Positions 2,798 through 15,924 of a stretch of 16,333 nucleotides of DNA are shown here, in pieces. The position numbers and the translations under genes were made by a program. Source of the stretch: an uncultured archaeon (GTDB lineage: Archaea > Asgardarchaeota > Lokiarchaeia > Sigyniarchaeales > SOKP01). The notes beneath the pieces are model-generated. The model was not told the DNA's origin. It saw only the letters and a list, made by a program, of their open reading frames with translations, and searched no databases. The first letter of the stretch is position 1, and every line of letters begins with the position of its first letter. The stretch lies in contig CAYLZE010000112.1 in assembly GCA_964388035.1 (NCBI GenBank), positions 1 to 16,333 of the forward strand, given 5' to 3'.

Positions 2798-3154
2798 ATG
2801 AGTCTGGTTAAATTTTGCGATTGCGGCGGTTTAATGCTTCCTACCGATATAGATGGAAAAAAAGTACTTAAATGCAAATGTGGACAAATTCAACCCTTGA
2901 ATGATGCTGAAAGCGATGCTTATAAATTAACCACAAAAGTGGAACATTCATTAAGAGAGGAACTCACAACTGCCTCTGAAATTTTAAAGTGGAAGGAAGA
3001 AAATCTGAAAAGTTGTATTAAAAATTTTAAATGTTATAAATGCGGATATGATAAATGTCAGTTAGAAACCCGTCAAACCCGTCGTGCCGATGAGGGAATG
3101 ACACATTTTATAATATGCCTTAAATGTGGCGCCATGAAAAAGGTGGGTAGCTAG
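2798..3154 (+). CDS. tfs: Transcription factor S (TFS) / RNA polymerase subunit M family
   Basis: 118 aa. It has an N-terminal Cys-ribbon (FCDCGGLMLP...LKCKCG). The C-terminal TFIIS-type zinc ribbon CYKCG...RQTRRADEGMTHFIICLKCG contains the QTR-x-ADE acidic hairpin. Confidence 0.8.
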   Translation: MSLVKFCDCGGLMLPTDIDGKKVLKCKCGQIQPLNDAESDAYKLTTKVEHSLREELTTASEILKWKEENLKSCIKNFKCYKCGYDKCQLETRQTRRADEGMTHFIICLKCGAMKKVGS

Positions 3155-3444
3155 CGTAATTTGTTTACTATCTGTTCTATAGACAATTTTTCCTTAAATA
3201 CAAGACTTATTATTTTATCATGAGATTTTAGGCCAGATAATAATTGAATTTGATCGGTTTCTGGTCCGAATTTCTTTTTGAGAAGCTTTAGGAGTTCCTT
3301 ATTTGCTTTATTTTTTGTTGGAGGGGAAGTTAATGTTATTCGTACGGAATTTTCCTCAAAATTTATAGTTTGCTTTTTTGAGTTAGGAATCACGATTACA
3401 TTTAACAAAAATTCTTTCTCGGAATTTTTTTTAAGAAAATTCAT
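3151..3444 (-). CDS. DUF167 (YggU-like) family protein
   Basis: 97 aa. The segment VIPNSKK...ITLTSPPTKNKANKELLKLLKKKFG matches the DUF167 signature (V-P-x-(A/S)-K ... APP-x-x-G-K-AN-x-x-L). It lies immediately downstream of the DHH gene on the same strand. Confidence 0.6.
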   Translation of the reverse strand: MNFLKKNSEKEFLLNVIVIPNSKKQTINFEENSVRITLTSPPTKNKANKELLKLLKKKFGPETDQIQLLSGLKSHDKIISLVFKEKLSIEQIVNKLR

Positions 3445-7200: not shown

Positions 7201-8748
7201 TTAACTTTTCTGTTCATTCTGTTCTATACCATATCCAATTAAGCGATATCTTTGATTAATTATTCTGGAAATGGCATATATGAAATTCTCCGGGGGACAA
7301 ATAGGAGGATTCAATTTTATCACGTAAGAATCTTTAAGAATTTTAGTCACGATACCTCCGGTCTTTTCAGTGCCTACCACTAGTAGGAGTCTTTCATTAT
7401 GCTTGAGGGGTTGAACCTTTATCTGTAACTCGGAACCAATCACTCTCTGGAATAATTTTACCTTCAGTTTCACCTCATCTTTAATTTCTGGCAAGCTGTC
7501 GATTTTTCCCACCAAATTTCCACTCAATGAATCTCCTTTTGTTAAGGAAGGATCTAATTTCGTTCCAATTCCTATTAATCCGCCTGGTTTAGCTAATTCC
7601 AATAGATTTTTTCCTTGACTAATGCTCGTCACGACGGTTTTTATCGATTCATACTTCTCCTTTATCCGCAAACCGGGTCGAATTTCTATTTCCTCTCCCA
7701 CTGACACCGTGCCTTTTAAAACAGATCCCCCCACTACGCCTCCTTTTAAATTATCAATAGATGTTCCGGGGCGATTTATATCAAAGGATCGTGCTACTAA
7801 AAATTGAAACTCCTCATTTTCGTCTAATTCGGGGGTAGGAATCACTTCTTCAAAAGCTCGTACTACTAATTCAATATTTGCACCAAAAACTGCAGATACA
7901 GGAATGATGGGGGCATTTTCTGCGACAGTTCCCTTGACAAATTCTTTAATTTGATCACGATTCTTTAATGCTTGTTCCTTTGATACAGCATCAATTTTAT
8001 TTTGAATAATAATAATTTTATCAATATTTGCAATGTTGAGGGCTGCTAAATGTTCTCTGGTCTGAGGTTGGGGGCAATCTTCATCTGCAGCAATTAATAA
8101 ACAAGCTCCATCCATTAAAGAGGCTCCGCTTAACATGGTAGCCATTAATATCTCATGTCCAGGAGAATCTACAAAAGAAATATTCCTTCTAAATTCTAAC
8201 TCCTTTCCACATTTAGGACAATTATATCGGGGTTGTCCTTTTTCTCTATCTTTTTCCACCATATAATCCGTGAGATAGAGATCACAAGTAGGACAATATA
8301 GAATGGTAGAATTGGAATACCCTAATTTGATTGAGATCCCACGTTCTTGTTCTTCCGAATGTCTATCCGTCCAATCTCCCGTCAATGCTTTAACTAAGGT
8401 TGTTTTTCCATGATCTACATGTCCAACAAGACCTATATTACATTCCGCCTGAATCTTCATTAACTCCTTGATATTTGATGACGATTTTTTCTTTTTGGGC
8501 TCTTGTTCAGCGGTTTTTTCTGTTTTCTCTTCCGATTTTTTTACTGCTGGATAAGCCTCTATTTCTTTCATGTAAGCTTTTGCATTCTCAATATATTTTG
8601 ATGCACTAGATTCTCCAATTCCTTTTATTTTTAAAAGGTCCTCGAGCTCCACTGAAGCTAAATCTTCAATAGTTTTAATTCCCGCCCCTTTCAAAATCTG
8701 TGCTGTTTTCTTTCCGATACCGCTTAATTCTTCTAATCCGTTTACCAT
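7201..8748 (-). CDS. eif2g: Translation initiation factor aIF2 gamma subunit with an N-terminal (HhH)2 extension
   Basis: 515 aa. The G domain shows NIGLVGHVDHGKTTL, SFVDSPGHE and IIQNKID. The aIF2-gamma zinc knuckle is CPTCD...CPKCG, followed by domains II and III. Residues 1-60 form two helix-hairpin-helix repeats (LSGIGKKTAQILKGAGIKTIEDL / LLKIKGIGESSASKYIENAKA). A Lys/Glu-rich linker then runs to about residue 96. Confidence 0.9.
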   Translation of the reverse strand: MVNGLEELSGIGKKTAQILKGAGIKTIEDLASVELEDLLKIKGIGESSASKYIENAKAYMKEIEAYPAVKKSEEKTEKTAEQEPKKKKSSSNIKELMKIQAECNIGLVGHVDHGKTTLVKALTGDWTDRHSEEQERGISIKLGYSNSTILYCPTCDLYLTDYMVEKDREKGQPRYNCPKCGKELEFRRNISFVDSPGHEILMATMLSGASLMDGACLLIAADEDCPQPQTREHLAALNIANIDKIIIIQNKIDAVSKEQALKNRDQIKEFVKGTVAENAPIIPVSAVFGANIELVVRAFEEVIPTPELDENEEFQFLVARSFDINRPGTSIDNLKGGVVGGSVLKGTVSVGEEIEIRPGLRIKEKYESIKTVVTSISQGKNLLELAKPGGLIGIGTKLDPSLTKGDSLSGNLVGKIDSLPEIKDEVKLKVKLFQRVIGSELQIKVQPLKHNERLLLVVGTEKTGGIVTKILKDSYVIKLNPPICPPENFIYAISRIINQRYRLIGYGIEQNEQKS

Positions 8749-8898: not shown

Positions 8899-9153
8899 TC
8901 ACTTTATTGTTTTAAGAGTCTTAATTTTCTTCCCGGTTAACGATTTTTTCTTAGAAGGTTCGACATAGCTCACGTGTAATAAACTATCGAAATAAAAAGT
9001 CGAGGTTTGCTTACATTTCTTATCGTTGTGATAAATATAAACAGGAGCCGGATATAAACTCGGATCGATATCCTTCATTTCAATATTAAAGGAAATCTTT
9101 TCATTACAAAAAGGACAAGTATTAAATCTGATTGGCAAGGTACTTCTCTTCAA
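8899..9153 (-). CDS. Hypothetical small protein with a CPFC motif (possible zinc-binding)
   Basis: 84-aa isolated ORF with its own AT-rich upstream region. It has a CPFCNEK motif, later Cys/His residues and a basic C-terminal tail. No family was recognised. Confidence 0.4.
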   Translation of the reverse strand: MKRSTLPIRFNTCPFCNEKISFNIEMKDIDPSLYPAPVYIYHNDKKCKQTSTFYFDSLLHVSYVEPSKKKSLTGKKIKTLKTIK

Positions 9154-9366
9154 TGAAAATGTTTAATCTATTGATATAAAAAACTTTCAATTAGATATAT
9201 TTTTCTTTTTTCAAGGAACACCCCTCATAATTTTCTATTTCTCTTCAAGATTATATAGAAAAAGTAAGATGATTAAAACACTTTTTACTGTAAAAAAGAT
9301 ACATTAAATTATTAGGTACATTTTTCTTTTTTATTATAGGTTTAAAATTTCATAAAAACTATTAAA

Positions 9367-11535
9367 ATGGTCAGCACTCATCATAAAAAGACTGCTATTC
9401 TCATCATTATTTTTATAATTTTGACAAACCTTTTGATATTTCGCTTTTTCAACGTAAATAAAAATCCAGTAATAATATCAAATCCCAATCAGAAGATTGC
9501 GACTTCGAATGGTAACGACGACCTATCCATCAATATCGATGCTAACATCTTACCTAAAATAAATTATAGTCAGATAAATGATTCATGGAAAACTAATAAG
9601 ATTGACATGTTAATTGTCAGTCCCAATCGACAAGATTTCGTAAATGCACTCAAGCCTTTAATGGAATGGAATAATCAAAAAGGAGTCAAGACCGTTATCT
9701 TGAGTAATTTTTCCTCTTATGAGGGAAACGATAAAGCGGAAAAAATCAGGAACATGATCAAGTCCTATTATGAAAAGCATGATATACAATGGGTACTGCT
9801 TGCAGGAGATGCTGAAAATAATCTAATTCCCATCAGGTATGTATATAATCCTGATACAGTAATAGTGGGACAAGGAGAAAGCGAATATGGAGATTGGAGC
9901 GATTATTATAAACCCACGGATTTTTATTATGCTGATTTAAATGGTACCTGGGATGATAATCACAATGGCATATATGGAGAGTCTTCCGTCTATACAGGAG
10001 GATCTGATGAGATTGATTGGACTCCGGAAGTATACGTTGGTCGATTTCCCGCCAGTAACGCGAATGAATTGGAAATAATGGTGAATAAAACCCTGCAATA
10101 TGAGATGAATCCCTACGTGGGAGATTGGATGAATCAAATGCTATTAGCAGGGGGCGTGTCCTCTTTAAATCCCTTAGAAGATGAAGCCAAATTAACCAAT
10201 TACATTTGGAATGAATATCTACTCTCTGAAATGAATTTTACTAACCTTTATCGAACCGCTTCTCCCTATGATCCCCCCACTCCTCCCGCTCCTAATGAGC
10301 AGGGTGGCTTAACGAGTAATAGTTTTGAGAGTCAATTAAACTTAGGTTATTCTACCGTATTCATTGCGGGACACGGACAGCCCACGAAATTCAATGATTA
10401 TTACGGAACTATTTTTCTTAGCTCCGATTCCGTCTCTAATTATAACATGCCTTCCTTAATTTATTCTGATGCCTGCTCAACAGCATCTTATGACAAAACG
10501 GATAATAATTTAGGAGAAACACTAATTAACAGCACGGACTCTGGAGCCATAGGATTTATAGGCGCTTTACGCTTAACTTGGTATTTTGAAAATGATCCCT
10601 CCTTTGAAATGTTAAATCGTGCGAATGCTAAGTTGTTTTGGGAAGAATTTTTTCTTAACGAGGAATATCAACCTGGAAAAGCGTTATATGATTCAAAAGT
10701 CGCTTACATGAATAGCAGTTACTTCACGGGAGGAAGTGCTTCCATGGACGAAGAATGGGAACGAAAAAATGTGTTAACTTATTGTTTATTGGGAGACCCC
10801 GAAATTGATATTTATACAAACATCCCCGTTAGCGTAAAAAATGCCTTTAAAGGAACTTTTTATGAATGCGAGCATGTATCGTTAACGATTAAAAATGCTT
10901 ATGATGAGGCAGTAGCCAATGCTAGAGTGCATATCTATACATCTAATGGCAAATACTCTCAAACAATCTATTCTGATTCTAATGGTAATATAGAATTCAA
11001 CTTGCCTGAAGGAAGGAGATTATACAATGTAACCATTACGGGACATGACCTCCTCGCCTCAAACTTTAATTTTCGCACCACTTCCGATAGCATTGCTCCT
11101 ACCTGTGAAAATTTAACAATCACCCCGAAAAATCCGACAGTCTCCGAAAATTTAACACTAGGCGTTCTTGCTAAGGATCCCCAAACAGGCATAGAAAGTC
11201 TTCATTTATTATTATCAAATGATAATTTCGCGACATATTCAATGCAAGAACTTCAATACACTCCACTTACTTCGAAAAACTATTATACATGTAATATAAG
11301 TAAATTAAAACCGGGCGAATATTCTGTTTTAATCCTCGCAAGGGATTATGCGAATAACACTGAATTATTTTATAATCAAAGCATCATGATACAGATTCCG
11401 ACACCTATCATTGATTATGTCCTTAATTTTGCGTTGTTTTCCTTGTTTGGAATAATGGGGGTAGTATTTTACTTCACATATTTTCAAATTAAAAGTTTTA
11501 AGAAGAAGGAAGAAATCTTTAAAGTTTTAACTTAA
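9367..11535 (+). CDS. Peptidase family C25 (gingipain-like, clan CD) surface protease, membrane-anchored
   Basis: 722 aa with an N-terminal TM anchor. C25-type blocks are present: VLLAGDAENNLIPIRY, YYADLNGTWDDNHNGIYGE, VYVGRFPASNANELEIMVNKTLQYE. A catalytic His/Cys dyad context is seen in VFIAGHGQP and LIYSDACSTASYD. A CarboxypepD_reg-like segment (ARVHIYTSNGKYSQTIYSDSNGNIEFNLPEG) follows, with many N-x-S/T sequons and a C-terminal TM helix. Confidence 0.75.
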   Translation: MVSTHHKKTAILIIIFIILTNLLIFRFFNVNKNPVIISNPNQKIATSNGNDDLSINIDANILPKINYSQINDSWKTNKIDMLIVSPNRQDFVNALKPLMEWNNQKGVKTVILSNFSSYEGNDKAEKIRNMIKSYYEKHDIQWVLLAGDAENNLIPIRYVYNPDTVIVGQGESEYGDWSDYYKPTDFYYADLNGTWDDNHNGIYGESSVYTGGSDEIDWTPEVYVGRFPASNANELEIMVNKTLQYEMNPYVGDWMNQMLLAGGVSSLNPLEDEAKLTNYIWNEYLLSEMNFTNLYRTASPYDPPTPPAPNEQGGLTSNSFESQLNLGYSTVFIAGHGQPTKFNDYYGTIFLSSDSVSNYNMPSLIYSDACSTASYDKTDNNLGETLINSTDSGAIGFIGALRLTWYFENDPSFEMLNRANAKLFWEEFFLNEEYQPGKALYDSKVAYMNSSYFTGGSASMDEEWERKNVLTYCLLGDPEIDIYTNIPVSVKNAFKGTFYECEHVSLTIKNAYDEAVANARVHIYTSNGKYSQTIYSDSNGNIEFNLPEGRRLYNVTITGHDLLASNFNFRTTSDSIAPTCENLTITPKNPTVSENLTLGVLAKDPQTGIESLHLLLSNDNFATYSMQELQYTPLTSKNYYTCNISKLKPGEYSVLILARDYANNTELFYNQSIMIQIPTPIIDYVLNFALFSLFGIMGVVFYFTYFQIKSFKKKEEIFKVLT

Positions 11536-11610
11536 TTTAACCTTTTTCTTTCTACTTGCCCTCAAAACCCTTTAATACAAGAATTTCATAAAATTTAATT
11601 AGAATATTTC

Positions 11611-11622
11611 CTTTTTTATTAT
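11611..11622 (+). promoter_or_regulatory. TATA-like element (CTTTTTTATTAT), candidate promoter for the permuted 5S transcript
   Basis: This is an AT-rich box upstream of the 5S island. Archaeal TSSs lie about 25 nt downstream of TATA, giving a start near 11640-11650, upstream of the BHB leader strand. A second candidate (ATAAAATTTA, about 11588-11597) would also include the outer helix strand 11631-11639. Confidence 0.25.
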
Positions 11623-11653
11623 CACTAAATACCACACATGTATGCATTTCGCA

Positions 11654-11665
11654 CCCATCTGGAAG
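11654..11665 (+). other. 5' (leader) strand of a bulge-helix-bulge-like processing motif: CCCAU (outer helix), CUGG (central helix), AAG (3-nt bulge)
   Basis: 11654-11658 pairs with 11787-11791, and 11659-11662 pairs with 11780-11783. 11663-11665 is left unpaired. See findings. Confidence 0.55.
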
Positions 11666-11785
11666 TTAAACTTTCTCACGTTAATTTAAGTAGTGTGATT
11701 GCGATTCATGCGAACAATTAAACTGTAAAGTTATTTACGGTCATGGTGAAAAAGGATAATACCTGGTCCCATTCCGAACCCAGAA
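11665..11785 (+). rRNA. rrf: 5S rRNA, circularly permuted gene order. 11665-11729 encodes the canonical 3' part, 11730-11733 is a GUUA cap, and 11734-11785 encodes the canonical 5' part.
   Basis: Helix I: 11734-11741 UUUACGGU / 11722-11729 ACUGUAAA (8 bp, 1 GU). Helix II: 11746-11754 GUGAAAAAG / 11671-11679 CUUUCUCAC (8 of 9 bp). Helix III: 11763-11766 CUGG / 11780-11783 CCAG, enclosing the 13-nt loop C UCCCAUUCCGAAC. Helix V: 11681-11686 UUAAUU / 11716-11721 AAUUAA. Loop E: AGUA (11689-11692) opposite GAA (11712-11714). Helix IV: 11693-11698 GUGUGA / 11706-11711 UCAUGC. The rotated sequence reads ...CAUUCCGAACCCAGAA-GUUAAAC..GUAGUGUG...CAUGCGAAC..., matching conserved 5S blocks. The rotated length is 121 nt. 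Confidence 0.8.
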
Positions 11786-11791
11786 CGTGGG
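11780..11791 (+). other. 3' (trailer) strand of the bulge-helix-bulge-like motif: CCAG (central helix), AAC (3-nt bulge), GUGGG (outer helix)
   Basis: This is the complement of the leader strand 11654-11662. The 3-nt bulge 11784-11786 lies 3' of the 4-bp central helix, mirroring the bulge at 11663-11665. Confidence 0.55.
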
Positions 11792-11799
11792 GTGTGTGG

Positions 11800-11804
11800 T
11801 TTTT
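11800..11804 (+). terminator. Oligo-T tract (T5) ending the 5S transcription unit
   Basis: GGTTTTTG lies immediately after the trailer helix. A second T-rich tract follows at about 11821-11834. Confidence 0.4.
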
Positions 11805-11929
11805 GAAAAAATTTAAGCTTGCTTTTCTTTTTTTAAATTCTATTGAATCCTTCCAACCTCTAAAATAACTTTTTAAGCAGTCCATAATACATTTCATTAG
11901 GACTATATAATAGGAACTGAAGAATTCAA

Positions 11930-14556: not shown

Positions 14557-14853
14557 CTATGGGCTACCTATATCTAAATCACCAAAATTGTAATATTTTC
14601 TCACGGGTTTCTTTACTTTCCACGTGCATTCTAAGCCTTTAGGAAATTGGACCAAATCACCTTTTTTAAACTGGAGTTTTTCCCCACTCTCCTTGTCAGT
14701 TACCTCAACTTCCCCCGATAAGATATAGCACGTCTCTGTTTCATCATAAGACCAAGGAAATTCACTAACTTCCTTTTCCCAAGTACCCCATGATTCTACC
14801 TCTAATTGTTCCAACTCTTCTTTCGTAGGAATTTTTTTTTTCAAATCATTCAC
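14557..14853 (-). CDS. Cupin domain protein (DUF861 / cupin_3 type)
   Basis: 98 aa. The segment WGTWEKEVSEFPWSYDETETCYILSGEVEVT...GDLVQFPKGLECTWKV matches the cupin_3 pattern (W...F.W.Y...E.CY.LEG...V...G......GD...FP.G....W.V). Confidence 0.65.
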   Translation of the reverse strand: MNDLKKKIPTKEELEQLEVESWGTWEKEVSEFPWSYDETETCYILSGEVEVTDKESGEKLQFKKGDLVQFPKGLECTWKVKKPVRKYYNFGDLDIGSP

Positions 14854-14938
14854 CTTTTGTTAATTTATATTCTTCCTAAATATTATTAGTGGTTTTTATA
14901 CATGTATTAAAAGAAGAAAGAATTTATAATATTAGTTG

Positions 14939-15406
14939 TTATGAGAGTTCTACTTGCAAAAACTTTTTTGATCGCAAAAAAATTAAATTGACTTTTATTT
15001 TTCGTGCTTCCCGCCTTAAATTTTTATCATTACTGGCAAGAAACACTCGAAAGGAGGCATTATTCAATTCTTTTAGTTTTCTAATCAAAAATTCATCCGT
15101 AGTTTCATCAAGATTCTTTCTCTCATTAACGATTTGTAAATCATAGCTTGACTGCATTTTCTCCAAATATCTCAATCCTGCTTCATATTGCAACTGGAAT
15201 TTTTGCTTTTCTTCGTTTCTTGCTTTTTTAGCATTCAATTCATCTAATGACTGCTGATATATCATGAAATTAGTGCTTCCCTCCAAAAGGTAAGTAATTT
15301 CCTCAAAATAATTAATCTTATATTGAAAAGGAAGTAAAATAAAATTTGAGTCAATAACCACTTTGTTGACTTGTTTTCTTTCCATATTCTCTGTCGTTGA
15401 TTTCAA
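14939..15406 (-). CDS. PIN-domain nuclease, Fcf1/Utp24-like (COG1412-type)
   Basis: 155 aa from a TTG start that overlaps the upstream stop as TTGA. An ATG at 15385 would give 148 aa. Acidic PIN residues occur in VVIDSNFILLP, DELNAK, ETTDEFL and FLASNDKNLRREARK, the last resembling the Fcf1 (A/T)TQDxxLKRR block. Confidence 0.6.
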   Translation of the reverse strand: MKSTTENMERKQVNKVVIDSNFILLPFQYKINYFEEITYLLEGSTNFMIYQQSLDELNAKKARNEEKQKFQLQYEAGLRYLEKMQSSYDLQIVNERKNLDETTDEFLIRKLKELNNASFRVFLASNDKNLRREARKIKVNLIFLRSKKFLQVELS

Positions 15407-15924
15407 GGGGGTAAACGCTCTAATATTCTTCCCGTCAATCTTGAGAAGGTTTCCTTAACATTCTCTCCCGTTTTGGAAGAAACTTTAACAAAATCAAAGA
15501 AATTAAATTGTTCTAAAAAGGAAAGCGCATAATCATCTTGAACCATGATATCATCCATTAAATCCAGCTTAGTTCCTACAAATAATATCGGAAGCGTGGG
15601 ATCATGTTTGCGGACTATGGTCACCCACTGCTCTAAGTTATCCAGGGTCATCGGGCGGGTGAGATCGAACATCAGCAATGCACCCTTGGCCCCCAGGACG
15701 TAACTCTCCAATAGAAATCGGAACCGCTCCTGTCCCCCGAAATCCCATAGCTGCAAAGTACAACTTGCGCCATCAATCTCTACTTCTTGGAGGAAAAACT
15801 CGACTCCTATCGTCATTTTGGTATCCGCAGTAAAGTTCCCTTCCACGTAACGATGTAGCAGCGTGGTCTTGCCCACTCCCCCTTCTCCCGCTGTTAATAT
15901 CTTTAAAATGAATTTCTTTGGCAT
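15403..15924 (-). CDS. Ras-superfamily small GTPase (Rab/Ras-like)
   Basis: 173 aa. G1 is GEGGVGKTT, switch I is TIGVEF, G3 is WDFGGQERF, G4 is VGTKLD (Thr replaces the canonical Asn of NKxD) and G5 is SSKTG. There is no C-terminal CAAX/CC prenylation motif. An SD-like GGAGTGA lies 12 nt upstream of the ATG. Confidence 0.85.
   Translation of the reverse strand: MPKKFILKILTAGEGGVGKTTLLHRYVEGNFTADTKMTIGVEFFLQEVEIDGASCTLQLWDFGGQERFRFLLESYVLGAKGALLMFDLTRPMTLDNLEQWVTIVRKHDPTLPILFVGTKLDLMDDIMVQDDYALSFLEQFNFFDFVKVSSKTGENVKETFSRLTGRILERLPP

Follow-up and report, generated by a model that had tools for sequence, protein, structure and literature searches.

The permuted 5S rRNA locus

The analysed stretch of DNA, referred to as the window, comprises 16,333 nucleotides, and the gene order around the locus of interest is aIF2-gamma, a C25 peptidase, a 5S rRNA gene, a 168-amino-acid protein, a glyoxalase, and Ras GTPases. 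The aIF2-gamma protein places the window among Asgard archaea, which rules out a DPANN origin, as might have been assumed from the AT-rich sequence. The 5S rRNA gene, at positions 11665–11785 on the forward strand like all features described below, is 121 nt long and circularly permuted, with the gene order helix II 3′ strand, helices V and IV, the helix I hairpin, helix II 5′ strand, and helix III with loop C. The 3′ half (11665–11729) thus precedes the 5′ half (11734–11785), and the two halves are joined by a four-nucleotide cap.

The 3′ strand of helix I (ACUGUAAA, 11722–11729) and its 5′ strand (UUUACGGU, 11734–11741) form seven Watson–Crick pairs and one U·G pair, closed by the tetraloop GUUA (11730–11733), which replaces the natural 5S termini; no free helix I ends are encoded. 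The 25-nt hairpin folds at −6.8 kcal/mol (z = −5.2), and none of 200 dinucleotide shuffles folds as well. The observation made in the preliminary description, that the helix I strands are joined only by GUUA within a 121-nt permuted 5S rRNA, is therefore correct. The 3′ strand of helix II (11671–11679) pairs with 11746–11754, and helices V and IV with loops E and D occupy 11681–11721 (11681–11686/11716–11721 and 11693–11698/11706–11711). Helix III (CUGG 11763–11766/CCAG 11780–11783) encloses loop C (11767–11779). Joining A11785 to G11665 restores the universal sequence CCCAGAA|GUUAAAC, including the conserved loop B sequence GAAGUUAAAC, which is restored only across this predicted ligation junction. 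The preliminary description placed the junction residues AA (11784–11785) in a helix III bulge, but they form the 3′ side of internal loop B, between helices II and III.

The Rfam 5S model (RF00001) gives no hit at its gathering threshold (38 bits) in the window or in any of the permuted loci, whereas seven normal 5S controls score 67–116 bits. Without the threshold, only helix III and loop C are matched in the window, at 11761–11785 (model positions 27–51, 21.9 bits). When the sequence is re-ordered, it folds into the canonical three-way 5S shape and matches a profile of normal 5S colinearly (E = 2.7e-15; 1e-13 to 1e-20 for the rotated sequences), while in gene order the match splits at profile position 51/52, such that position 52 to the end precedes positions 1–51. 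A permuted-5S model (R1) scores the locus at 129 bits, but by construction, since the window is included in the model.

Leader and trailer flank the gene as a processing stem with a bulge-helix-bulge (BHB) motif at 11659–11665/11780–11786. The distal leader strand (ACCACACA, 11631–11638) has eight bases complementary to the trailer strand UGUGUGGU (11793–11800), and the equivalent AACCACAU/AUGUGGUU pairing recurs in the homologues. The outer BHB helix h is formed by CCCAU (11654–11658) and GUGGG (11787–11791), and the central 4-bp helix H by CUGG (11659–11662) and CCAG (11780–11783), the latter being the 3′ strand of helix III in the mature RNA. Two 3-nt bulges on opposite strands flank the central helix, AA|G (11663–11665) and AA|C (11784–11786), with predicted cuts between 11664 and 11665 and between 11785 and 11786, as derived from the geometry of the archaeal BHB. 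A T5 tract (11800–11804) directly after the stem is likely an archaeal transcription terminator, by inference, and T-rich tracts follow the trailer in the homologues as well.

Homologues and structural covariation

We found 22 distinct homologues, all from Asgard archaea, that form a syntenic group of genomes labelled Hodarchaeota or “Promethearchaeota”, and a GC-rich, probably Njordarchaeia-like group. The AT-rich group shares the gene order of the window, although neighbouring proteins are only 40–50% identical, which points to old, vertical inheritance. An initial sequence pattern with 18 fixed bases (GAAGTTAA...CCATNCCGAAC) was too loose, and returned 120 rows consisting almost entirely of chance hits or bacterial 23S/5S neighbours, with locus L100 (loci are numbered with the prefix L) as the only true homologue. 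Among the rejected candidates, L008 from Woesearchaeota is a normal 5S with a chance upstream match. A search with the 168-amino-acid downstream neighbour gave only two hits without taxonomic breadth, and an exact look-up of the C25 peptidase returned nothing.

In the RNAalifold consensus of 10 aligned sequences (group A), helices I–V are recovered, 97.1% of cells are paired, 15 of 31 pairs show double changes, and none of 500 shuffles reaches the observed covariation, which indicates purifying selection on structure. Helix I is 100% paired, with compensatory changes in the three pairs next to the loop; three pairs in helix II and 8 of 12 pairs in helices V and IV also show double changes. The capped helix I is present in all 22 homologues, and is far more than a chance hairpin. 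A joint RNAalifold of rotated and normal 5S sequences recovered only helices I and III and a short, probably spurious, 3-pair helix, because MAFFT misaligned the divergent groups, and the group-specific alignment was used instead.

The BHB stem covaries too. Across 14 homologues, 92.9% of cells are paired, 7 of 10 pairs have double changes, none of 500 shuffles reaches the observed covariation, and pairing collapses when the partner columns are slid. All six aligned columns of the outer helix, which comprises 5 bp in the window, show double changes (91.7% of cells paired). Most homologues are of type 1, broken in loop B as in the window. All four type 1 homologues with CCAG (the window, L134, L150, and L157) have leader CUGG, and type 1 homologues with CCGG have leader CCGG, or UCGG in L156; the 5′ bulge is invariant in all 19 distinct type 1 homologues. 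The central helix has 4/4 pairs in the window, but 3/4 plus a G·A mismatch in three GC-rich homologues. The inner helix h′ of a strict hBHBh′ motif is missing (0–1 pair; h′ = 0 in the window, L150, and L153), and the motif is therefore a relaxed hBH, or bulge-helix-loop, form. The minimum-energy fold of the window precursor recovers the helix I hairpin and the distal stem but not the BHB, and a simple BHB pattern scan is not discriminating in this AT-rich sequence, where each precursor gives dozens of chance candidates, so the motif rests on covariation and not on pattern alone.

The cap is exactly 4 nt in 20 of 22 sequences and UUCG in 10, the other homologues having UUUG (three), UACG (two), UUAG (two), CUUG, GUAA, a 5-nt loop in L133, and a 35-nt elaboration in L159 caused by a 31-nt insertion; the 4-nt rule is thus not absolute. 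Near-identical relatives differ in the loop (UUUG, UUAG, or UUCG) but not in the stem, such that the cap sequence drifts while its length stays fixed. Three of the four GC-rich sequences extend helix I by several pairs before a UUCG, GUAA, or UUUAU loop.

Three genomes (L152, L155, and L158) break the same gene inside loop C (GGUC|CCAU) rather than in loop B, using the same kind of leader, and predict the same circle, which argues that ligation is obligatory. Furthermore, L153 (a closed 2.27-Mb chromosome, CP070805.1) and L158 carry a 30-nt intron in loop D bounded by a full hBHBh′ motif, and its predicted removal gives exactly the GUUGCGAUC seen in intron-less relatives, which points to dependence on splicing enzymes.

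Predicted processing and final form of the RNA

Based on these observations, we propose that 11665–11785 is the working 5S rRNA gene of this archaeon. The permuted gene, the capped helix I, and the fold of the precursor stem are established by sequence and covariation, whereas transcription, cleavage, ligation, retention of the cap, and association with the ribosome are inferred without RNA-level evidence. The inferred transcript is short, about 175 nt, with its own A/T-rich upstream region. By analogy with archaeal BHB substrates, the tRNA-splicing endonuclease EndA would cut in both bulges, and the RNA ligase RtcB would join A11785 to G11665, after which CCAG would switch partner to the internal CUGG to form helix III. 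The 5′ cut would require an endonuclease that accepts relaxed motifs. Neither EndA nor RtcB is among the ten window ORFs scanned against Pfam, but their presence is expected from general archaeal biology. Nothing in the sequence suggests a way or a need to reopen the cap, and the mature, ribosome-bound 5S is therefore most likely a 121-nt covalently closed circle (probability about 0.6). The preliminary description considered three outcomes, i.e., a circle, a linear molecule with ends at the junction, or a cap opened by an unknown nuclease; this is the correct set of alternatives, and its interpretation is partly supported, in that the structural reading holds and the comparative evidence (a fixed-length, often UUCG, cap with drifting sequence, a longer capped helix I in the GC-rich group, and two breakpoints giving the same circle) favours the circle, but persistence of the circle in ribosomes remains an inference.

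A less likely possibility is that the circle is only an intermediate, and that an unidentified nuclease opens the cap or trims helix I before or during ribosome assembly. 5S rRNA is universal, and in every characterised cytoplasmic ribosome it is a linear RNA whose free ends form helix I; circular 16S precursors, and 23S precursors in some archaea, are re-linearised, and the insertion in L159 would be harmless if the region were discarded. However, the loop is only 4 nt on a fully paired stem, and UUCG, found in 10 of 22 sequences, is a very stable and compact loop that makes a poor nuclease substrate. The variable loop sequence provides no conserved recognition element, no BHB exists at the cap, and since helix I length differs between groups (8 bp against up to about 12 bp), no common mature end is defined. 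Capped native ends are also tolerated in Escherichia coli (PMC7283268).

Even less probable is a linear permuted 5S, excised or simply trimmed but never ligated, with ends in loop B held together by helices II and III. Brown-algal mitochondria use a linear 5S with relocated ends (PMC4267664), and engineered E. coli 5S with new ends in loop C or D functions when tethered to 23S (PMC7283268). On the other hand, closely related genomes place the break in two different conserved loops with the same leader design, which is neutral only if the ends are re-joined, and in all 22 sequences joining at the cut sites restores the universal sequence exactly, with no nucleotide gained or lost. BHB cleavage leaves a 2′,3′-cyclic phosphate and a 5′-OH, the substrate of RtcB, and excised BHB fragments in archaea are found as circles; the permuted SRP RNA is likewise ligated (PMC4731332).

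That the locus is a rearranged relic or an assembly artefact, with a conventional 5S gene elsewhere, is highly improbable, although the analysis covered only 16 kb of this genome. The 22 distinct sequences come from independent assemblies, including the closed L153 chromosome, with compensatory changes in every helix, conserved synteny, and a covarying processing stem, and a relic would not keep these features across lineages whose neighbouring proteins are only 40–50% identical. Wu et al. 2022 could not predict a 5S gene in closed Heimdallarchaeum genomes (PMC8813620), which fits the permuted gene being the only one.

Comparison with other permuted and circular RNAs

The closest counterpart is the permuted SRP RNA gene of Thermoproteus tenax (Plagens et al. 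2015, PMC4731332), where a universal structured RNA is encoded with its 3′ part before its 5′ part, is matured by EndA into a functional, covalently closed circle, and was missed by standard gene finders. Here, the RNA is ribosomal and the lineage is Asgard rather than Thermoproteales, the pathway is predicted from sequence and covariation only, and two alternative breakpoints and additional BHB introns occur in relatives. Permuted tRNA genes (Cyanidioschyzon merolae and Thermofilum pendens; cited in PMC4267664) also have swapped halves, a BHB at the junction, and a circular intermediate. The tRNA circles are reopened by RNase P and tRNase Z at the natural acceptor ends, across a spacer that carries those signals, whereas the 5S ends are replaced by a bare 4-nt loop with no known processing signal.

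Circular or permuted 23S rRNA in archaeal ribosomes (PMC12918454; Pyrococcus furiosus, PMC7758197) is excised at a BHB and ligated by the splicing ligase, and the circle, or a permuted derivative, is retained in the mature large subunit. Those 23S genes are colinear, and circularisation joins the natural ends through the processing stem, while in the permuted 5S gene ligation is needed to rebuild an internal loop; the same work states that 5S processing does not involve circularisation. In the permuted mitochondrial 5S rRNA of brown algae (Valach et al. 2014, PMC4267664; Rfam mtPerm-5S), a closed hairpin replaces the open-ended helix I, but the RNA stays linear with ends at the junction of the alpha and gamma domains, without BHB or ligation, and with the order of the beta and gamma domains unchanged. 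An Rfam E-value scan of 11500–11900 gave no mtPerm-5S match, and in our case the break is in loop B (or loop C), with the gamma domain encoded first. In the engineered E. coli 23S-cp5S rRNA (Huang et al. 2020, PMC7283268), the native 5S ends are joined by a tetraloop, new ends are opened in loop C or D, and the ribosomes are active, but this artificial construct is tethered into 23S and is not a free circle, and shows structural tolerance only. Minor circular 5S species in Halobacterium and Sulfolobus (PMC12558985; Danan et al. 2012, cited therein) arise from normal linear genes, have heterogeneous junctions, and are thought to be linked to degradation, rather than being the obligatory product of a permuted gene.

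No description of an archaeal permuted 5S was found in the literature, subscription-only papers not being covered. A wider reading, which we consider somewhat more likely than not, is that in a whole branch of Asgard archaea (genomes labelled Hodarchaeota and related “Promethearchaeota”, probably also Njordarchaeia-like ones) the only 5S rRNA is made from a permuted gene by the tRNA-splicing enzymes and resides in the ribosome as a circle without free ends, with a breakpoint that can move around the circle during evolution and with BHB introns that can be added. This would be the first natural, obligatorily circular 5S rRNA, and would explain why no 5S gene was found in closed Heimdallarchaeum genomes, from an Asgard clade reported as closest to eukaryotes. 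It would extend the role of the tRNA-splicing machinery to the making of an essential ribosomal RNA, and add a third circular RNA, after SRP RNA and 23S, to core archaeal machines. Because Rfam and RNAmmer-type searches miss these genes, genomes of this branch are scored as lacking 5S, which affects criteria for high-quality MAGs. The locus defines precise junction (GAACCCAGAA|GUUAAACUUUC) and cap (AAACUGUAAAGUUAUUUACGGUC) sequences that can be looked for in existing metatranscriptomes and enrichment cultures, and the movable breakpoint, made possible by the palindromic CCGG helix III, together with the loop D introns, gives a natural system for studying how permuted genes arise and drift.

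Further sequence variation

Insertions of about 30 nt in L156 (after GUUAAAC) and L159 (inside the cap) were tested as BHB introns in all possible registers, and none fits. L154 (CP070831.1) has broken synteny and no 5S within 10 kb. In the window, the leader segment CATTTCGCACCCA (11645–11657) resembles loop C/helix III (CATTCCGAACCCA) at the same distance from the cut, with 11/13 identities in a local alignment. It could be a relic of a tandem 5S duplication, but the evidence is weak, as 113 of 5000 shuffles score as high, and the resemblance is seen only in this sequence.

Structure of the capped helix I and the permuted gene

The segments at 11722-11729 (ACUGUAAA) and 11734-11741 (UUUACGGU) are complementary, with seven Watson-Crick pairs and one U.G pair, and are joined by GUUA at positions 11730-11733. 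The hairpin folds at -6.8 kcal/mol, and none of 200 dinucleotide shuffles folds as well (z = -5.2). The closed helix I noted in the preliminary description is therefore confirmed. The hairpin is located inside a 5S rRNA whose halves are swapped, such that 11665-11729 carries GUUAAAC..., the 3' strand of helix II, helices V and IV, and the 3' strand of helix I, while 11734-11785 carries the 5' strands of helices I and II, followed by helix III and loop C. The length of 121 nt for 11665-11785 agrees with that given in the preliminary description. Rfam reports nothing in the window at its gathering threshold, but at a permissive threshold helix III/loop C is found at 11761-11785 (model positions 27-51, 21.9 bits). 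When the two halves are re-ordered, the sequence folds into the standard three-way 5S shape and matches a profile built from seven normal 5S genes colinearly (E = 2.7e-15), whereas in gene order the match splits at profile position 51/52.

The predicted processing motif

In archaeal splice sites, the 5' strand is ordered as outer helix, 4-bp central helix and 3-nt bulge, and the 3' strand as 4-bp helix, 3-nt bulge and outer helix, with the cut falling after the second bulge base; we checked this geometry against the tRNA 37/38 case. Applied to the window, it gives an outer helix formed by CCCAU (11654-58) and GUGGG (11787-91), a central helix formed by CUGG (11659-62) and CCAG (11780-83), and the bulges AA↓G (11663-65) and AA↓C (11784-86), where the arrows mark the predicted cuts. 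A further 8-bp distal stem is formed by ACCACACA (11631-38) and UGUGUGGU (11793-11800). Joining of the cut ends recreates ...CCCAGAA-GUUAAAC..., the universal loop B sequence. Two details differ from the preliminary description. The AA at the junction, which had been assigned to the helix III bulge, is the 3' side of internal loop B, and there is no inner helix h', so that the motif is a relaxed bulge-helix-bulge (BHB). The CCAG strand is used twice, in that it pairs with the leader in the precursor and with the internal CUGG (11763-66) in the mature helix III.

Homologues and genomic context

A loose pattern scan of genomes returned one true homologue (locus L100) among chance hits, while a stricter pattern on metagenome contigs returned 16 permuted loci, representing 13 distinct sequences, plus 13 normal 5S genes with a chance upstream match. 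The gene for aIF2-gamma (7201-8748, minus strand) shows that the organism is an Asgard archaeon, since its best hits are 70-81% identical proteins from MAGs labelled Promethearchaeota, Lokiarchaeota, Hodarchaeota and others, the labels being those of the depositors. This aIF2-gamma carries an N-terminal helix-hairpin-helix domain (PF14520), and the best 120 database hits, all Asgard-labelled where named, share the fusion. When these proteins were used to retrieve syntenic loci, eight more permuted genes were obtained, one on a closed 2.27-Mb chromosome (L153, CP070805.1) and one in a Hodarchaeota-labelled MAG (L152).

The neighbourhood is conserved, and consists of aIF2-gamma, a C25 peptidase, the 5S gene, a 168-aa membrane protein, glyoxalase, a cupin, a PIN protein and Ras-like GTPases. 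The neighbouring proteins are nevertheless only 40-50% identical, and the arrangement is therefore old and vertically inherited. At 14557-15924 (minus strand), and in the equivalent regions of L100, L124, L150, L152 and L153, one or two Ras/Arf-family small GTPases form a conserved cluster with a PIN-domain protein and a small cupin a few kb from the 5S gene. These GTPases are 74-81% identical across loci whose other proteins are about 45% identical. In the closed 3.34-Mb Asgard chromosome L154 (CP070831.1), the C25 peptidase is truncated (8915-9518), synteny is broken, and no 5S of either kind was found within 10 kb of aIF2-gamma. In three relatives (L152 6745-6640, L153 6775-6705 and L155 6775-6705, minus strand, approximate), a long AU-rich hairpin (AACCAUAUAA...UUAUAUAAUGGUU) lies just upstream of the distal leader helix of the 5S precursor, and is absent from the window.

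A GC-rich group of four homologues (L128, L133, L136 and L141) is not syntenic, and the nearest named relative of the neighbouring MetRS is a Njordarchaeia MAG (59%). In L141, a Clp1-family P-loop protein (polynucleotide 5'-kinase family, PF16575; 9195-10619, minus strand) is encoded about 2 kb from the permuted 5S gene of this Njordarchaeia-like group, which may be coincidental. In total there are 22 distinct sequences. Rfam detects none of them at its threshold, but detects seven normal 5S controls at 67-116 bits. Conversely, a covariance model built from ten permuted sequences finds the independent permuted genes at 52-123 bits and normal 5S at only 22-33 bits.

Covariation of the 5S fold and the processing stem

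For ten AT-rich sequences, the RNAalifold consensus is the permuted 5S fold, in which 97.1% of cells are paired and 15 of 31 pairs have changes on both sides. None of 500 shuffles reaches the observed covariation, and pairing collapses to 31-40% when partners are slid. Helix I is 100% paired, and the three pairs next to the cap change in a compensatory way (A-U/G-C, G-C/A-U, C-G/G-C/A-U). For 14 sequences, the ten BHB pairs are 92.9% paired, 7 pairs are changed on both sides, and again none of 500 shuffles reaches the observed covariation. The outer helix has entirely different sequences in different lineages (CCCAU/GUGGG, AAACG/CGUUU, AGCG/CGCU, and 9-13 bp GC-rich stems). The central helix covaries with helix III. 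Among sequences broken in loop B, here called type 1, all four with CCAG (the window, L134, L150 and L157) have the leader CUGG, and those with CCGG have CCGG, or UCGG in the homologue L156. In L156 (within 2983-3133, minus strand), an insertion of about 30 nt (AUCUUGCUAGUUUAUGGCAUUGGACCAAA) directly follows GUUAAAC in an otherwise well-conserved permuted 5S, but no BHB could be found for it.

The helix I cap

Across the 22 sequences, the loop that closes helix I is UUCG in 10, UUUG in 3, UACG in 2 and UUAG in 2, with single occurrences of GUUA (the window only), CUUG, GUAA, a 5-nt UUUAU, and a UUCG interrupted by a 31-nt insertion (L159). Near-identical relatives (L124, L125, L135, L137 and L139) differ in the loop (UUUG, UUAG, UUCG) but not in the stem, such that length is constrained and sequence is not. 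Three of the four GC-rich sequences lengthen helix I, to as much as about 12 pairs, before the loop. Nothing resembling a BHB occurs at the cap. This is the pattern of a permanent structural tetraloop on a solvent-exposed helix tip, and not that of a spacer carrying a cleavage signal. UUCG in particular can be inferred from its stability to be a poor nuclease target, and engineered E. coli ribosomes tolerate the native 5S ends joined by a tetraloop (PMC7283268).

An alternative in which the circle is re-opened at the cap has precedent in rRNA maturation, and the insertion in L159 is compatible with it. In this sequence (within 3073-3223, minus strand), the GC-rich insertion (UU-GAUUGCGCGCUUCGCGCCGCAAGCAAAGAUU-CG) folds as an extension of helix I, and no BHB fits in any register; it could be either an expansion segment or a removable spacer. 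Because of the cap pattern and the lack of any re-opening signal, we consider re-opening unlikely.

A second breakpoint and predicted introns

Three genomes (L152 6588-6469, L155 6655-6536 and L158 about 2640-2490, all minus strand) have the same locus, the same kind of leader (ending in GCGCUGGAA↓ or GCGCCGGAA↓) and the same capped helix I, but here the gene starts with CCAUCC(C)GAACCCGG(A/C)AGUUAAAC and ends with ...ACCCGGUC. The break in these type 2 genes therefore lies inside loop C (GGUC↓CCAUCC, profile positions 34/39) instead of loop B (51/52), and after joining, both arrangements give the same circle. Since helix III is the palindrome CCGG/CCGG, the same leader strand can pair with either of its strands, which makes the shift easy to understand. 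A close type 1 relative, L153, shares the short loop C variant of two of the type 2 genes (L152 and L155), and the move is thus probably recent. Moving the break between two conserved loops is neutral if the RNA is ligated, and hard to reconcile with a linear end product. An unligated, linear permuted RNA appears less likely still than re-opening at the cap.

In addition, L153 (about 6626-6597, minus strand) and L158 (about 2576-2547, minus strand) carry 30-nt insertions at the same loop D position, each bounded by a complete hBHBh' motif (UUGC.GA↓N ... G[C/U]AG.AA↓U, with helix IV as the outer helix, and an inner helix). The predicted removal yields GUUGCGAUC, exactly the sequence of intron-less relatives, and the insertions appear to be BHB introns in a 5S rRNA gene. 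The insertion in L156 is of the same size. These 5S precursors in L153 and L158 thus appear to depend on the splicing enzymes at two places.

Proposed maturation and comparison with related systems

Sequence and covariation establish a permuted 5S gene under purifying selection, with a conserved leader/trailer stem of BHB type and a capped helix I. Cleavage by EndA and ligation by RtcB are instead inferred from archaeal BHB substrates, with precedents in tRNA introns, pre-16S/23S, and the permuted SRP RNA of Thermoproteus (PMC4731332). That the circle persists is likewise an inference, based on the cap pattern and the absence of any re-opening signal rather than on RNA data, and we assign it a probability of about 0.6. 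The suggestion in the preliminary description that the mature RNA may stay covalently circular is partly supported. On the basis of the compared loci rather than of whole-genome scans, a relic accompanied by a canonical gene elsewhere in the genome is regarded as very unlikely.

The closest analogue is the Thermoproteus SRP RNA, which features a permuted gene, an EndA site, and a functional circle. Permuted tRNA genes use the same entry route, but are re-opened by RNase P and tRNase Z. Circular or permuted 23S in archaeal ribosomes shows that a circular rRNA can be the mature form (PMC12918454, PMC7758197), although that work explicitly excludes 5S from circularisation. Brown-algal mitochondrial 5S has a hairpin instead of helix I, but is linear and broken elsewhere, and no Rfam mtPerm-5S match was obtained here. 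Minor circular 5S species from normal genes in Halobacterium and Sulfolobus are regarded as degradation-related. A full-text literature search, restricted to open-access papers and bioRxiv, found no report of a permuted archaeal 5S gene. Wu et al. 2022 state that 5S genes 'could not be predicted' in closed Heimdallarchaeum genomes, which is what a permuted gene would cause if those genomes carry one. The proposed pathway is a known one, applied here to a new and universal RNA, with a movable breakpoint.

With respect to the origin of the permuted gene, the leader sequence CATTTCGCACCCA at 11645-11657 resembles loop C/helix III (CATTCCGAACCCA) at the same distance from the cut (p about 0.02 by shuffling), and may be a trace of a tandem duplication of a 5S gene. 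With a palindromic CCGG helix III, two tandem CCGGAAG copies would form the central BHB helix and both bulges automatically. Two Clostridia/Oscillospiraceae contigs (L017 28-176 and L068 5637-5784) each contain two 5S loop C matches 123-124 nt apart, corresponding to directly abutting tandem 5S copies, the kind of arrangement from which a permuted gene could arise.
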